Origin: a virus
Taxonomy: Duplodnaviria; Heunggongvirae; Uroviricota; Caudoviricetes
Direction: 5' to 3' (one strand)
IMG/VR virus record: IMGVR_UViG_2671180296_000012
Length of the DNA stretch: 35,325 nucleotides
The position numbers and the translations under genes were made by a program. Position 1 is the first letter of the stretch. The number at the start of each line of letters is the position of its first letter. The notes beneath the pieces are model-generated. The model saw only the letters and a list, made by a program, of their open reading frames with translations, made no database searches and was not told the DNA's origin. This document shows, one piece after another, positions 5,037 to 34,280 of the stretch.

Positions 5037-7829
5037 ATGACGGCAGAGTACATCAGGGACTGGCAACAACCGCGCCACGCAGTGGGGCGTGAAGGAACGG
5101 GGATCCCCGCTCCTGAATCCGCGCTTTCCTCCTGGCTGGATGCCTACCGGGTAGAGAACGAGCGCCGCCAGGAAATGGCTGATGCGGCGTTCTCCGCCAC
5201 GCCGCAGGGCAACCTGATTAATAAAAGCCTGGACGCACAGGAAAAACAGGACAAAACCATCACACTGGCAGGAGACGCCAGAAAACAGGCACGCGGCGCG
5301 GTGGATGAAGCCATGGCCTCGCTGCGCCTGCTGCCGTCCTATCTGCGCGATCCGCTTATTCGCCACCTCTCCTTCCTGCGCAAAAAACAGGAAGCCGATC
5401 GCCGGAAAGGCAAAAAGAGCTGGCAGGCGGAACGCTATGCACGCGGAACCCTGCGCAAAATATTCGAACGTCTGGATAGCACTGACGGACGCTGGCTGAC
5501 ACCGGGTTATCGCTCCCTTGCCGGACGCGAACGCCTGGACGATTTGCTTTACCTGCCGCAGCTCAACAAACACCAGATACAGACGCTGGCCACCATGACG
5601 GCGGCGATGTTCAGCAGCACCTTCGAAAAACTCTGCGATGGCTTTGGCGCGACCGATGGCGAGCTGACCATGGATGTAACGCTGAAGGCGTATCAGATGC
5701 TGGCCCGCATGGCGTTACACCTGCACGCCATGCCTCCACATTATGACGCACTAACAACAGACAAAGACCGGAGGAACGAACCGGACACGGAGCTGCTGCC
5801 GAGCGCAATCCTTCGCCTGACCTGTGCGGAATGGTGGAAACGCAAACTGTGGCTGTTACGTTGCGAGTGGCGGGAAGAACAACTCCGCGCCGCCTGTCTG
5901 GTTTCCAGAAAGACATCACCCTATCTGAGCCAGGACGCGTTAAGCGAGTTTCGCGCACAGCGCGAGAAAACACGCGATTTCCTGAAAAGTTTCATGCTGG
6001 AAAACGAAGACGGGTTCACGATTGATCTCGAGACAGTGTATTACGCGGGAGTAAGTAACCCGGTTCACCGTAAGGCAGAAATGATGGCCACCATGAAGGG
6101 ACTGGAACTTCTGGCCGAAGCCCGTGGCGACAGAGCGGTGTTTCTGACCGTCACCTGCCCGTCAAAATACCACGCAACAACGGAGAACGGTCATCCGAAC
6201 CCCAAATGGAACGGGGCCACCATGCGCGACTCCAGCGATTACCTGGTTAACACGTTTTTTGCGGCGGTCCGCAAAAAACTGAACCGCGACGGCCTGCGCT
6301 GGTATGGCATCCGCACGGTGGAGCCTCACCATGACGGCACTGTGCACTGGCATATGATGGTCTTTGCACATCCGGACGAGATTGAAACCATCGTGTCCCA
6401 CGTCTGCGATATTGCCATTCAGGAGGACCGCCACGAGCTGGGCGATGACATAACTCCGCGTTTTAAGGCGGAGTATGTCGACGGCTCAAAAGGCACACCA
6501 ACCAGCTACATCGCCACCTACATCGGAAAGAACCTGGACAGCCGCGCCGTGGATGGCATCGACCCGAAAACGGGCAAGCCACGCGTTGACCACGAAACCG
6601 GAAAATCAATGGCCGAGAGCGTGGAGCGCGCCATCGGCTGGGCGCGCCTTCACCGGGTCCGCCAGTTCCAGTTCTTTGGCATTCCCTCCCGTCAGGTGTG
6701 GCGTGAACTCCGCCGCCTTGCCAGCCAGATGGCACGCAACCCGGAGGGCCCGCAACGGCTGAAGGATGACGCAATGGATGCGGTTCTTGCTGCCGCTGAT
6801 GCCGGGTGTTTTGCCACCTACATTGAAAAACAGGGTGGCGTACTTGTTCCGCGCAAGGACTACCTGATTCGCACAGCCTACGACCTCGCAGATGAGCTGA
6901 ACGATTACGGCGAACAGAGTGTACAGATTTACGGGATCTGGTCGCCACTCATCGGGGAATCCTCCCGTGTGTGCACGCACCCGGATAACTGGAAGCTGGT
7001 AAGACGTAAACCGGAAGCGGAAGACAGCACCCACGAAAATGGTTTTGACCTTCAGGGCGGCCCTGCCGCCCCTTGGACTCGTGGCAATAACTGTCCCCGT
7101 GTACAGGAAACGAACAACAACGGGACAGAACAGCCGGAAGAACGGCCAGCACCGTGGCCGCAGCTTCCTGACGGCGTTGACGTGAATGAATGGATGCGCT
7201 CACTGAAACGGCACGAACGTCGGGCGCTGATGCGTTCGCTTCGCGACAAACAGGCAAAAAACAGCAGTGATGAAATGCAGAACTGGTCACAGAGCCGCAA
7301 GCAGCCGCGGCCTTTGCCTGATAACCACGAATTACTCGCTAAAGAATGGCGGGAGTCTGTCGAATCTCTCGGCCTGCATATCGGTGAACAACAGATGCTG
7401 CACCTGTTACGGGGCGGCAGTCTGTACGTTGACGGCAGCATCATTGCACCGCAGGGATTTGAAATTGTACGCAAACCGGATACCCGCCCGGACAGCCGAA
7501 TCACGCAGCTCTGGCAGCGCCTGAGCCGTAATCACGGCGTAAGCAGCACGGAGATCCGTCATAACCCGGTCGCCAGCTATCTGGAACAGCTGGGGGCATC
7601 AGACCCCGAAGCCGCCGCACGCCTGGCATCCACACTTCAGCAGGACCAGAACACCATGAAAACACCCGTTACCGTGCTTTCTGACATGCTGCGCGCCATC
7701 CGTAACGCAGAGCACGAACAGAGAATCAGTGAAACCACTGAACGCGCCCGCCGCAAAGCAGACCTGCTGCGGGGTGGACTGACCAGTGGAAACAAAAACA
7801 GACAGAAACGGGATTCACAAATCCCGTAA
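5037..7829 (+). CDS. A: replication initiation protein gpA (HUH rolling-circle endonuclease)
   Basis: 930 aa; HUH-type motif GTVHWHMMVFAHP and paired-tyrosine motif YIATYIGKN, as in the P2 gpA family. Confidence 0.9.
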   Translation: MTAEYIRDWQQPRHAVGREGTGIPAPESALSSWLDAYRVENERRQEMADAAFSATPQGNLINKSLDAQEKQDKTITLAGDARKQARGAVDEAMASLRLLPSYLRDPLIRHLSFLRKKQEADRRKGKKSWQAERYARGTLRKIFERLDSTDGRWLTPGYRSLAGRERLDDLLYLPQLNKHQIQTLATMTAAMFSSTFEKLCDGFGATDGELTMDVTLKAYQMLARMALHLHAMPPHYDALTTDKDRRNEPDTELLPSAILRLTCAEWWKRKLWLLRCEWREEQLRAACLVSRKTSPYLSQDALSEFRAQREKTRDFLKSFMLENEDGFTIDLETVYYAGVSNPVHRKAEMMATMKGLELLAEARGDRAVFLTVTCPSKYHATTENGHPNPKWNGATMRDSSDYLVNTFFAAVRKKLNRDGLRWYGIRTVEPHHDGTVHWHMMVFAHPDEIETIVSHVCDIAIQEDRHELGDDITPRFKAEYVDGSKGTPTSYIATYIGKNLDSRAVDGIDPKTGKPRVDHETGKSMAESVERAIGWARLHRVRQFQFFGIPSRQVWRELRRLASQMARNPEGPQRLKDDAMDAVLAAADAGCFATYIEKQGGVLVPRKDYLIRTAYDLADELNDYGEQSVQIYGIWSPLIGESSRVCTHPDNWKLVRRKPEAEDSTHENGFDLQGGPAAPWTRGNNCPRVQETNNNGTEQPEERPAPWPQLPDGVDVNEWMRSLKRHERRALMRSLRDKQAKNSSDEMQNWSQSRKQPRPLPDNHELLAKEWRESVESLGLHIGEQQMLHLLRGGSLYVDGSIIAPQGFEIVRKPDTRPDSRITQLWQRLSRNHGVSSTEIRHNPVASYLEQLGASDPEAAARLASTLQQDQNTMKTPVTVLSDMLRAIRNAEHEQRISETTERARRKADLLRGGLTSGNKNRQKRDSQIP

Positions 7830-7934: not shown

Positions 7935-8894
7935 ATGAAAATTTGTATCGACGACGGCTCCACCAACATCAAGCTGGCATGGACTGAGAACGGCGAACGC
8001 CGCAACGCCATCAGCCCGAACAGCTTCAAGTCGGAATGGTCTGCGCCGTTCGGTGGCACGCAGCCCGCGAACTACATGCTTGATGGCGTGCGCTATGGCT
8101 TTGATCCGGTCAGCGATCGCTTTGTCCAGACGACCGACACGCAGTACCAGTACAGCGATGTGAATGTAGTTGCCATTCATCACGCACTGGTCAAATCAGG
8201 CATCACACCACAGGAAGTGGATGTGGTTGTCACCCTACCACTGAGCGAGTATTTCGACACAAACGCACAGCCGGACATGGCCAACATCAACCGCAAAAAA
8301 GCGAACGTCATGCGCCCGGCGGAGTACCAGAACGGCGAAGCATTCACTATCCGTAACGTACGGGTTATGCCTGAATCCATTCCGGCTGGCTTTAAAGCAC
8401 TGGCTGACATGAGTCCGTTTGAATCCCTGCTGATTGTGGATTTAGGCGGAACCACGCTGGATGTGGCAAAGGTTCAGGGACAACTGGCAGGTATCAGCCA
8501 GGTGTTTTGCGATCCACACGTAGGCGTTTCCCTGATGGCCGATGCCGTACTGTCGGTGATGGCCACTAACGGTATGCGTACCAGTCACCACATCGCCAAT
8601 ACCATTATCGAACATCGCCATGATGAAGCCTGGCTGCGCCAGCACATCCACAATGACGCGCATTACGACAGCCTGATGGCGGTTATTCGTGAAAAGGAAG
8701 AAACACTGAAACAACGCGTGATCCGCGCGCTGGCGGGTTTTTCGGGTTACGGGCGGGTGATGGTTGTCGGTGGAGGGGCGGAGATTGTGGCACCCGCTAT
8801 CCGCGAAGCCTGCGGAGTTAATGCGACTTTCATCGCGGACGGGGTGCCACAGTTTGCTCTGGTTAATGGGCTGTACGCAATGGACAAGGAGTAA
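7935..8894 (+). CDS. parM: actin-like segregation ATPase ParM/StbA homolog
   Basis: 319 aa; strong resemblance to plasmid R1 ParM as recalled (MKICIDDGSTNIKLAW, ISPNSFK, YSDVNVVAIHHAL, VMPESIPAG, LLIVDLGGTTLDV, VMVVGGGAE). Confidence 0.85.
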   Translation: MKICIDDGSTNIKLAWTENGERRNAISPNSFKSEWSAPFGGTQPANYMLDGVRYGFDPVSDRFVQTTDTQYQYSDVNVVAIHHALVKSGITPQEVDVVVTLPLSEYFDTNAQPDMANINRKKANVMRPAEYQNGEAFTIRNVRVMPESIPAGFKALADMSPFESLLIVDLGGTTLDVAKVQGQLAGISQVFCDPHVGVSLMADAVLSVMATNGMRTSHHIANTIIEHRHDEAWLRQHIHNDAHYDSLMAVIREKEETLKQRVIRALAGFSGYGRVMVVGGGAEIVAPAIREACGVNATFIADGVPQFALVNGLYAMDKE

Positions 8895-8898
8895 ACCA

Positions 8899-9210
8899 AT
8901 GACGACACCAACCAGACGGATAAGTTTCTATCTGAAGCCCGCCGCCGTCAAGAACGAAGGCGAAGCATGTGCCTGGCTGGACAGCCTTACGCCAGAAGCC
9001 CGCAAAAGCGGCCAACGCGTGGCTTTTTTGGCCGGGCTGGCACTTCTGAAAATGAATCCAGCAGAGGCTTACCGACTGGCTGCATGGGCTGACGATGAGG
9101 CGTTATCGGTGACACAAACCAGGACAGAACACCCCGTGTCACAGCCAGTACCAACCGCACAGATAACCAGTCAGATGGCAGGGAATATCCGGGCATTATT
9201 TCCTGAATGA
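8899..9210 (+). CDS. parR: ParR-like ribbon-helix-helix centromere-binding protein
   Basis: 103 aa from the ATG at 8899 (AAGGAG upstream), directly after parM as in R1; ISFYLKP, FLAGLALL and NIRALFPE resemble R1 ParR from memory. Confidence 0.6.
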   Translation: MTTPTRRISFYLKPAAVKNEGEACAWLDSLTPEARKSGQRVAFLAGLALLKMNPAEAYRLAAWADDEALSVTQTRTEHPVSQPVPTAQITSQMAGNIRALFPE

Positions 9211-32722: not shown

Positions 32723-32983
32723 ATGTTCCGTTGTCCGCTTTGTGGCGCATCTGCCCGTATCCGCACCAGTCGTCCGGAAAATGATTCAAACACCGTGCGG
32801 CAAAAGTATTACCAGTGTAACAACCTGGAATGCGGCGTATGCTTCTCAACACTGGAAGCTTTCCATAAATTCACATCGAAACACGCCTCCGGCGTTCACT
32901 CTTCAGAAGGTATCCCGTGGCATGAGCTGCCAGCTTCGCACAGGGGAAACAATCAGATGAGCTTGCCTTTACCTCAGAATTAA
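32723..32983 (+). CDS. ogr: Ogr/Delta-family zinc-finger late transcription activator
   Basis: 86 aa; N-terminal MFRCPLCG...ARIRTSR...YYQCNNLEC Cys4 pattern as in P2 Ogr; last gene before the element end. Confidence 0.75.
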   Translation: MFRCPLCGASARIRTSRPENDSNTVRQKYYQCNNLECGVCFSTLEAFHKFTSKHASGVHSSEGIPWHELPASHRGNNQMSLPLPQN

Positions 32984-33084
32984 CAGGCAGAATTGCCGGA
33001 GTAACAAAAAAGCGATAGATTACGCGCGGGTGCCTTTCGGCTGATGGTCGGAGGGAATACCCGAAGGCCGGATGTGGAAAGGCC

Positions 33085-33120
33085 CCGGAAAACATTTCTG
33101 TTTAACCGAGGCCCTAACCC
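33085..33120. repeat. imperfect direct repeat, copy 1 (core GTTTAACCGAGGCCCTA); candidate att-type junction
   Basis: 27 of 36 positions identical to 34079-34114, with a 17-bp core differing at one position; lies about 100 bp past ogr. Confidence 0.45.
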
Positions 33121-33172
33121 GTCAACCTAGCAAGTGATAGGTTAGCGCCTCTCCAACAAAGGAGCAAGCGCT

Positions 33173-33313
33173 ATGTCGCAAAAATCGCTTACGGCCATCA
33201 CGTTCTGCGTGACGGTAATCCTCATCATCTGGATGCTGCACGGTTCGCTGTGTGAAATACGGATGAGCTTCTGGGGAGCGGAGTTTGCGGCGTTCTTACA
33301 GTGTAAGCAGTAA
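33173..33313 (+). CDS. Hok/Gef-family type I toxin (small membrane peptide)
   Basis: 46-aa ORF below the track cut-off; AAAGGAG 8 nt upstream; MSQKSLTAITFCVTVILIIWMLHGSLCEIRMSFWGAEFAAFLQCKQ has a TM segment followed by SLCEIR and EFAAF, the Hok signature; followed by stem-loops and a terminator. Confidence 0.65.
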   Translation: MSQKSLTAITFCVTVILIIWMLHGSLCEIRMSFWGAEFAAFLQCKQ

Positions 33314-33401
33314 GGAAACCGCGACGGGGAGGCAACTCCCCGTCAATCGGTTGCTAGGGTAAGGCCGATAAGGCACCCTATCTCATAGGCATGAATAACA
33401 A

Positions 33402-33434
33402 CCCCGCAGCGTAAAAACTGCGGGGTTTCTTTTT
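33402..33434 (+). terminator. rho-independent terminator (CCCCGCAG-cgtaaaaa-CTGCGGGG plus T-run) downstream of the hok-like ORF
   Basis: Perfect 8-bp GC-rich stem followed by TTTCTTTTT. Confidence 0.6.
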
Positions 33435-33502
33435 GGAACTCTCACTAGCTAGTGAGCCGTTAACTGCACATTATGCTCGCACAACAAATCAGTTAAAAGA
33501 GA

Positions 33503-33784
33503 TTACTCAGCATTCTCCTGCTTCCATTGCCGGATCATTTCATCGGTAACATCACTTTCATAACATACCACGTCATACCCTCCAGTACGGCTATATGCAC
33601 TGCGTCCACCACATCTACTACCATTCCTTGCATGATTATACGGACACGCACAATTGCCTGGATAAGATTCAATGGACTCTTTAATTATTTCTTTCTTGAT
33701 CTGAGCATCTGACTTTCCTGTTGCTGCATACCCACTAAAAGATACCAAACAAAGGCAGATTGCCATTAATAAACCACATCGCAT
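33503..33784 (-). CDS. small secreted Cys-rich protein in AT-rich DNA (start uncertain; track ORF extends to 33898)
   Basis: Internal Met gives MRCGLLMAICLCLVSFSGYAATGK..., a signal-peptide-like N-terminus, then a Cys-rich region (NCACPYNHARNGSRCGG); surrounding DNA is markedly AT-rich relative to the prophage. Confidence 0.4.
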   Translation of the reverse strand: MRCGLLMAICLCLVSFSGYAATGKSDAQIKKEIIKESIESYPGNCACPYNHARNGSRCGGRSAYSRTGGYDVVCYESDVTDEMIRQWKQENAE

Positions 33785-34078
33785 ACCGATACACTCTATT
33801 ACTAACCAATCATAGCCCACATCATAAAATCGAGATGAGGAGTACAACACCTTTAACAAGAAGGTGCCATCACGATAATATGCCGTGCAATTCATCAAAA
33901 AAAAGATCTATATCAAAGAGATAGAGTTATTATCAGTGCTGCAGACATCAGCATTCGAGGCAGCAGAAAGACAGTAAATCTAACGAATTTGTCTTTTTCT
34001 CAGGATGTTGTCAGATTAAAAAAGATAGAGTAGCGCAGACACCTTTTGGTGGATGGTAGGAGGAAAAATGAAGTTGAG

Positions 34079-34114
34079 TGGGAAGATCCCAGAAAAAACT
34101 TTGGTTTAACCAAG
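34079..34114. repeat. imperfect direct repeat, copy 2 (core GTTTAACCAAGGCCCTA)
   Basis: Matches 33085-33120; a 13-codon ORF with a perfect AGGAGG (34058-34099) ends inside this repeat. Confidence 0.45.
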
Positions 34115-34253
34115 GCCCTAGTTCAATATGCAAAATGCAGATGAGTTGCAGGGAGTTTTGCTTCACCCTTAGAGTTTAAACAGACGTGTACTATCATTAT
34201 TTCTGCATATCGCCACACCATCGCCACTTTACCGCCATTTAACAAAATACAAA

Positions 34254-34280
34254 TACAAAAAAACCACCCGAAGGTGGTTT
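34254..34280 (-). terminator. rho-independent terminator of the glyW-cysT-leuZ tRNA operon
   Basis: Hairpin AAACCACC-cgaa-GGTGGTTT with a 7-nt A-run upstream on the plus strand (T-run on the minus strand), about 45 bp downstream of tRNA-Leu. Confidence 0.6.

Follow-up and report, generated by a model that had tools for sequence, protein, structure and literature searches.

The textbook hok/sok-type system is the hok/mok/sok locus (parB) of plasmid R1, in which translation of mok up to the Shine-Dalgarno (SD) sequence of hok is required for Hok synthesis (PMC9841398). A prophage-borne hok/sok locus, hokW-sokW of the Stx2 prophage Sp5 / 933W, has been studied as well (Takada et al. 2021, PMC8621323). 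More recently, a catalogue of Hok diversity (Escalera-Maurer et al., 2026 preprint, 10.1101/2025.08.07.668861) found hok genes to be enriched in prophages, and chromosomal hok loci are cited in that preprint as having been reported unable to mediate post-segregational killing.

Here we describe a hok locus in the window, by which we mean the whole 35,325-nt stretch of DNA that was analysed. A sequence-only reading of this DNA had called it a hok/sok-type locus arranged like a hok mRNA. Profile searches and RNA folding agree with this, as do covariation, public annotation and the literature. We put the probability that it is a hok/sok-kind Hok/Gef type I toxin-antitoxin locus, with prophage stabilisation as the best guess for its role, at roughly 85%.

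A Hok-family gene in an accessory module of a P88-like prophage

The hok coding sequence (33173..33313, + strand; 46 codons plus stop) encodes the peptide MSQKSLTAITFCVTVILIIWMLHGSLCEIRMSFWGAEFAAFLQCKQ and is present exactly as the sequence-only reading had described it. The strong SD sequence claimed for it was found as AAGGAG at 33159-33164, 8 nt before the ATG, and the product is indeed predicted to cross the membrane once: residues ~5-22 form its only strongly hydrophobic stretch, with a 15-residue Kyte-Doolittle mean of up to 2.7. Alignment to Hok family profiles, which had been proposed as a check, gave a match to Pfam HOK_GEF (PF01848) of 30.1 bits against a gathering threshold of 22 (E 3.7e-7), covering profile positions 5-42 of 42, together with a match to PHROG 251 (E 2.5e-23). 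The Pfam match stays significant after correction for 1000-2000 short ORFs in the window, a number that is a rough estimate and not a count. The length fits the ~50 aa usual for Hok toxins, which have one N-terminal transmembrane helix. For comparison at the residue level we used the Hok logo residues M1, C16, T18, L30, C31, E32 and E41; in the alignment of the peptide with R1 Hok and other relatives, four Hok sequences besides its own, its M1, C12, T14, C27, E28 and E37 are invariant and L26 is present. The closest characterised Hok is that of K-12 hokA (43% identity), which is also the best NCBIfam match, while the identity to R1 Hok is 33%. The peptide nevertheless falls far short of the cut-offs of both the NCBIfam HokA equivalog model (NF007290; 35.8 bits against 89) and the Hok subfamily model (NF007279; 23.6 bits against 73), and it is therefore a member of the family rather than an orthologue of a named hok gene.

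Across the coding sequences of 46 close homologues, 14 of the variant codons are synonymous and 2 non-synonymous, where ~21% synonymous would be expected by chance; the 46-aa Hok-family peptide is intact and under purifying selection. By profile and alignment, the ORF at 33173-33313 is a genuine Hok/Gef family member, and by analogy this exact sequence would be toxic.

The ORF had been taken to be unannotated, which turned out to be wrong, as an identical peptide is RefSeq WP_000078920.1 ('Hok/Gef family protein'), and another is gp52 of phage P88 (NC_026014), labelled 'MokW-like host killing, hok/gef family protein'. Complete E. coli genomes carry the locus in 1549 of 5426 cases (28%), and every record listed annotates it. 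In the Hok catalogue, the cluster 72 construct 72_1621 is one residue off the present peptide, and neither 72_1621 nor the Stx-phage variant 72_1589 is among the three of the 45 Hok constructs that are named as non-toxic (10.1101/2025.08.07.668861). The gene is thus already known: it is catalogued, annotated and close to a variant listed among the constructs reported toxic.

The window consists of E. coli chromosome and a P88-like prophage (genus Xuanwuvirus, P2-type) inserted beside leuZ. The prophage contains an integrase gene (1-1002, − strand), the replication gene A (5037-7829) and, towards its right side, ogr (32723-32983), after which the hok locus follows. Homology to strain K-12 resumes at 34255, just past the 3' trailer of leuZ, and continues through leuZ-cysT-glyW and pgsA, placing the prophage/chromosome junction at ~34254/34255. 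This is 0.8 kb to the right of the hok module, so the module does not lie at the very right end of the element, as had been claimed, and is instead its penultimate feature. Homology to P88 and to the Chuche phage ends at 33434-33436, which is the hok terminator, and the segment beyond it (33437-34254) is variable cargo that differs between carriers, as does the insertion site. The hok locus is accessory to the P88-like prophage, a module placed between its ogr gene and its right attachment end. Strain PK6 was considered as an example of the empty site and set aside, as it keeps only the last 69 nt of the locus and is an IS-disrupted remnant, not attB.

The element also carries parM (7935-8894) and a parR-like gene (within 8764-9210). 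Both are real, and the observation that the element holds homologs of both stabilisation loci of R1 therefore stands. In P88 and its relatives parMR likewise accompanies hok, which follows ogr there too, so that the pairing of parMR and hok is a standing, already known property of P88-like phages.

Fold of the hok mRNA and its conservation among relatives

A candidate hok promoter lies at 32993..33021 (+ strand), with TTGCCG (32993-98) and TAGATT (33016-21) separated by a 17-nt spacer. Judging from its sequence, it would start transcription at G33028. Only 8 of the 12 consensus positions match, which is why a scan with a threshold of 9/12 did not report it; among relatives, the −10-like hexamer keeps the pattern T-A-x-A-x-T (TAGATT / TAGAAT / TACATT). 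From the start of the Rfam leader and the end of the terminator, the full-length hok mRNA is predicted to span 409 nt (33028..33436, + strand). The Rfam hok/sok leader model RF01794 'sok' covers 33028-33183 (+ strand), including the 145 nt ahead of hok, end to end with 47.3 bits (E 4.4e-9), a score below its gathering threshold of 59, and the family is accordingly absent from a gathering-threshold Rfam scan of the locus. The RNA of 33028-33436 has a minimum free energy (MFE) of −182.5 kcal/mol, with z = −8.9 relative to shuffles.

A fold-back of the mRNA had been proposed for checking by structure prediction, and the predicted MFE structure does pair the 5' end (33028-33042) with the 3' UTR (33363-33378), as expected for the tac- and fbi-equivalent elements. 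In the predicted folds, the tac-equivalent 5' element (33028..33042, + strand) has three mutually exclusive partners. Besides the fbi-equivalent 3' element (33363..33378, + strand), these are a local segment (33046-33062), with which the 5' end pairs once the 3' partner is removed, and 33074-33086, the anti-SD side of the GAGG stem, with which it pairs in RNA cut at 33345. The corresponding duplex energies are −28.4 kcal/mol for 33363-78, −21.8 for 33074-86 and −16.8 for 33046-62, so the fbi element ranks above the anti-SD box and the anti-SD box above the local hairpin. In silico, these three partner states would be those of the R1 model summarised in PMC9841398.

The leader contains a stem-loop at 33081..33113 (+ strand), the presumed Sok target, in which the conserved GAGG box (33108-33111) is sequestered by GCCCC (33082-86). 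The Rfam alignment and the description of R1 in PMC9841398 make this stem the homologue of the mok-SD/anti-SD stem in R1. It is followed by a hypervariable segment (33126..33138, + strand), which supplies the 5' side of a second long-range helix whose 3' side lies in the 3' UTR (33346..33358, + strand), as seen in both the fold and the alignment, and which overlaps the target of the putative Sok 5' tail. We considered labelling this helix 'ucb/dcb' and rejected the label, since in PMC9841398 ucb lies at the anti-SD and dcb close to the Sok promoter. Further downstream, a hairpin at 33143..33173 (+ strand) sequesters the hok SD by pairing GGAG (33161-64) with CUCC (33151-54); it reaches the A of the ATG and contains an in-frame TAG at 33143-45.

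Behind the coding sequence, the two elements that the sequence-only reading had noticed were both recovered. The GC-rich stem-loop just after the stop codon lies at 33323..33344 (+ strand) and is presumed to protect the 3' end of the processed, active mRNA, a role modelled on the 3' stem-loop of R1 described in PMC9841398. The rho-independent terminator occupies 33400..33436 (+ strand), with a stem at 33400-33427 followed by TTTCTTTTT.

We then set the fold against a collection of 52 distinct homologues of the locus (phage records, plasmids, genomes, viral contigs), counting the MFE pairs on their alignment; the fold derives from one of the 52 sequences, and most of these are close relatives. 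A search of genome contigs with an alignment as query gave 13 loci, 3 of them in non-enterobacterial assemblies, which are probably contamination. Over the 52 relatives, 93.6% of the paired cells can pair, as against 37-46% when the partners are slid along the alignment. Changes on both sides were seen for 27 pairs versus 12.9 in shuffles, and none of the 500 shuffles reached 27.

The compensatory changes are concentrated in three elements. In the second long-range helix (33126-38 / 33346-58, helix 7), 6 of 12 pairs have changed on both sides and 90% of the cells remain paired. The hairpin after the stop codon (helix 17) is paired in 100% of the cells with 4 of 9 pairs compensatory, and 4 of 10 pairs of the terminator stem are compensatory among the relatives. 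The SD-burying hairpin (helix 8) is 97.4% paired and the GAGG stem (helix 5) is nearly invariant. The tac-fbi helix (helix 1) is 96.5% paired in the 52 relatives and its changes are one-sided only (G-C to G-U), so that its support is conservation and not covariation. Taken together, the compensatory changes among the 52 relatives support the long-range fold.

The antisense RNA and the mok frame

On the opposite strand, 33074..33131 (− strand, approximate ends) would encode a Sok-like antisense RNA of ~55-60 nt, a candidate suggested by its fold and its match to the leader. Its predicted structure opens with an unpaired 5' tail, continues as a long hairpin and closes with UUUCC (−24 kcal/mol, z = −2.9), an architecture shared with the antisense strand of an R1-type locus. 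A candidate promoter for it lies at 33139..33167 (− strand), with TTGCTC (33167-33162), a 17-nt spacer and TAACCT (33144-33139). The complement of this −10 hexamer, AGGTTA on the + strand, is invariant in the 52 relatives. Relative to the hok SD, TTGCTC-17-TAACCT sits where the R1-type sequence has TTGCGC-17-TATCCT, which we take to be the R1 Sok promoter. A consensus promoter scan of 32900-33600 with the 9/12 threshold reported no promoter in the sense or the antisense direction. The same scan run on the R1-type locus as a control also left the TTGCGC-17-TATCCT motif and the R1 terminator unreported, and the negative result is uninformative because this control motif was missed too. We infer the Sok antisense RNA from the homology of the leader, the position of the promoter-like hexamers and the Sok-like fold.

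The expectation that a mok frame would lie in the ~130 bp upstream of hok was not borne out. No ORF initiated by ATG, GTG or TTG reads into hok: stops at −30, −35 and −58 from the hok ATG close all three frames, and no start codon follows them. Moreover, none of the 52 relatives has an ATG, GTG or TTG 3-14 nt after the GAGG box. Where R1 has the AUG of mok, 33 of them carry just AUA, AUC or AUU; the window lacks even these. This differs from the R1-type loci, of which 7 of 8 have an ATG at −57/−58 reading through the hok start, the eighth having an in-frame ATG at −42. Two upstream ATG-initiated ORFs (33044-33130 and 33072-33137) were considered as substitutes for mok and rejected as conserved frames, since near-identical relatives differ in where these ORFs end, from −118 to +137. 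The K-12 hokA leader was likewise discarded as a guide to mok, since its sequence is unrelated and it is cut by IS150.

A switch that needs no mok was considered too: under this 'anti-anti-SD' idea, GAGGC (33108-12) would titrate GCCUC (33147-51), the two being paired in the MFE structure of the RNA cut at 33345. The predicted accessibility of the hok SD hardly changes between the full-length, truncated and antisense-blocked RNA, and the switch is unsupported because this ensemble accessibility stays at 0.33-0.37 in all states.

The missing mok frame is the one departure from the textbook system and leaves the classification unchanged. Tentatively, and with rather more doubt than confidence, we suspect that the widespread cluster 72 clade, found in P88-like phages, in Stx phages and on some plasmids, needs no mok leader peptide and has retained the GAGG box and the refolding switch, with the antisense RNA acting only through mRNA decay or structure. 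The segment 33126-38, covarying with 33346-58, would then set the specificity of the antisense RNA, which would allow several hok loci to coexist in a cell without cross-talk. In this clade nature supplies a test of whether other family members can do without the mok leader that R1 requires.

Proposed role and comparison with known systems

By analogy with R1, the full-length mRNA would be stable, closed and untranslatable. Slow trimming of the 3' end back to the GC-rich hairpin would strip both 3' partners, upon which the 5' end would re-pair with 33074-86 and the leader would open. As in R1, a short, unstable antisense RNA made from the promoter at 33167-33139 (− strand) would bind 33074-33131 and lead to decay by RNase III. 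If synthesis of the antisense RNA stopped, Hok would be made, enter the inner membrane and collapse it, the trigger probably being either the loss of the prophage or a shut-off of transcription by an infecting or induced phage. Our best guess for the role is that cells losing the prophage would be killed and the prophage thereby stabilised, with the same trigger operating on phage infection or induction.

Other readings keep much of this evidence and assign it differently. The same molecular system may have been selected to aid the phage's own lytic cycle, in that the antisense RNA is lost on induction and early membrane damage by Hok improves the release of progeny. For the prophage Sp5, mitomycin C is reported to make sokW RNA disappear, HokW to precede the endolysin and a deletion to cut the phage yield by half (PMC8621323), and the present locus comes immediately after ogr, the late-gene activator. 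No terminator was found between the two, so that read-through on induction is conceivable. We consider this reading unlikely, however, since HokW is a different Hok (51 aa) on a lambdoid and not a P88-like phage, and since the module is also found on plasmids, where such a role makes no sense.

Distinctly unlikely, in our view, is that the system was selected as an abortive-infection defence, in which a superinfecting lytic phage shuts off transcription, the antisense RNA is depleted and Hok is lethal to the host before the incoming phage can mature. The locus does lie at the end of a P2-type prophage, in a region whose accessory genes vary. Such variable end regions of P2-type prophages often carry defence genes. 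The R1 hok/sok locus reduced the plating of T4, as cited in PMC8621323, but the effect is given there as modest and was obtained on a high-copy plasmid, and the Hok survey saw no excess of hok genes in the neighbourhood of defence systems (10.1101/2025.08.07.668861).

That the locus is an attenuated or silent relic, whose mRNA is made and folded while the buried hok ribosome-binding site is never opened without mok, so that no toxin comes from the native transcript and the locus persists by hitch-hiking on successful prophages, would fit the missing mok start in the window and all 52 relatives, the AUA/AUC/AUU triplets in 33 of these, which resemble start-codon decay, the hok SD being paired in every predicted RNA form, the need for mok translation in R1 and the inactivity in post-segregational killing cited for chromosomal hok loci, yet it is very improbable given that the peptide is under strong purifying selection (14 variant codons synonymous, 2 non-synonymous), the compensatory changes by which the long-range helices, the hairpin after the stop codon and the terminator have been preserved, the retention of the module in unrelated carriers and its presence in 28% of complete E. 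coli genomes.

With a stabilising hok/sok-type locus as the preferred reading, the comparison with described systems is as follows. The locus shares with R1 hok/mok/sok a Hok-family toxin, a probably homologous leader, the predicted fold-back of the 5' end onto the 3' end and the predicted alternative 5' hairpins, as well as the GAGG box in a stem, the SD-burying hairpin, the protective 3' hairpin and the terminator. The antisense strand would also resemble that of R1 in its predicted Sok-like fold and in the position of its candidate promoter. It differs from R1 in being without a mok frame, in encoding 46 instead of 52 aa and in residing in an integrated prophage instead of a plasmid. As reported for HokA, both cysteines (C27 and C44 here) are encoded directly, whereas the hokA leader has an unrelated DNA sequence and hokA shares its reading frame with mokA.

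The hokW-sokW locus is likewise prophage-borne and is the source of the 'MokW-like' name that annotation pipelines give to the present gene. We rejected the identification of the present locus with the studied hokW-sokW, as HokW has 51 aa and the N-terminus MKQQKAM (from primer YO-357) on a lambdoid carrier, while the present peptide has 46 aa and starts with MSQKSL; the pipeline name should not be taken as identity. A true homologue does occur in Stx2 phages, with 83% identity to the present locus in its DNA (46 aa, MSQKSLITVT...); it is often unannotated there and is not 'hokW' either, since PMC8621323 shows HokW to be the different, 51-aa peptide. The carriers of the module are P2-type phages, Stx phages and plasmids, which are unrelated to one another. 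From cluster 72, WP_000078920.1 and P88 gp52, nothing of substance separates the present locus.

Leader variation and upstream region of the hok locus

The most variable stretch of the hok locus is a leader segment at window positions 33115-33138, and this variation is found among relatives that are otherwise 90-99% identical. The segment is predicted to lie opposite the antisense RNA's 5' tail, and it covaries with a 3' UTR counterpart at 33346-33358. The variability and covariation of the leader segment, as read from the alignments, fit a diversification of antisense specificity.

We also examined the position at which R1-type loci carry the AUG of mok, the leader reading frame, which in the relatives lies 52 to 56 nt upstream of the hok ATG. 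In alignment A3 of homologous hok loci, 33 of the 52 relatives have AUA, AUC or AUU at this position; the hok variant of the window itself carries none of these three codons there. Such codons could be either decayed start codons or deliberately weak near-cognate starts.

Upstream of the locus, the search for a terminator gave none from the stop codon of ogr to the 5' end of hok (32983-33028), and the candidate -35 element of hok lies 10 nt past ogr. Read-through from this late activator gene could produce 5'-extended hok transcripts that are incapable of the 5'-3' fold-back.

Insertion site, cargo and partition genes of the prophage

The right junction between prophage and chromosome was placed at 34254/34255 by K-12 homology, which reaches 99% from 34255 on and starts directly past the 3' external trailer of leuZ (3'ETS-leuZ sRNA). 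This indicates that the element sits with yecA on one side and the glyW-cysT-leuZ operon on the other, a site read from the right junction; the left end of the element is located beyond the window.

Past the hok terminator, the segment up to the junction (33437-34254) is variable cargo that is missing from P88 and Chuche; phage Chuche carries com and a DNA methyltransferase in its place. The cargo ORF on the minus strand (33503-33898), listed in RefSeq as a 93-aa hypothetical protein, encodes a cysteine-rich protein and matches PHROG 27544, a family of unknown function, with an E value of 2.7e-59.

In addition, domain profiles identified parM and a parR-like gene on the plus strand at 7935-9210. 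ParM is complete, scoring 272.6 bits on StbA_N and 230.9 bits on the ParM C-terminal domain, and the ParR-like protein matches Plasmid_stab_B with 84.6 bits. An integrase and an actin-type partition system are present together on one integrated P2-type prophage. P88, P884B11, Chuche, 520873 and a Citrobacter phage have conserved the parM-parR pair, with DNA identities of 94-98%.

Probable database artefacts and the homologue in Stx2-converting phages

Related loci in assemblies labelled as a Planococcaceae MAG, a Vagococcus sp. and Xanthomonas pisi (L010, L011 and L014; peptide identity 100%, 100% and 74%), the last on an 857-nt contig, most likely stem from contaminating E. coli or phage DNA. 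Among the matches listed, 21 of 80 IMG/VR contigs (about a quarter) terminate precisely at the stop codon of hok, among them L027, L032, L035 and further contigs of 841 nt. Gene-based prophage boundary calls at this codon drop the 3' UTR and, with it, the fbi element (the partner of the mRNA 5' end), the hairpin and the terminator.

Stx2-converting phages contain a second hok-type locus, a homologue of the window's hok with 83% DNA identity (phage matches H11-H25). It encodes a 46-aa peptide beginning MSQKSLITVT (locus L002, 1670-1810) and is without annotation in many Stx2 phage records. These phages carry this homologue on top of the studied hokW-sokW system, which has a different toxin.
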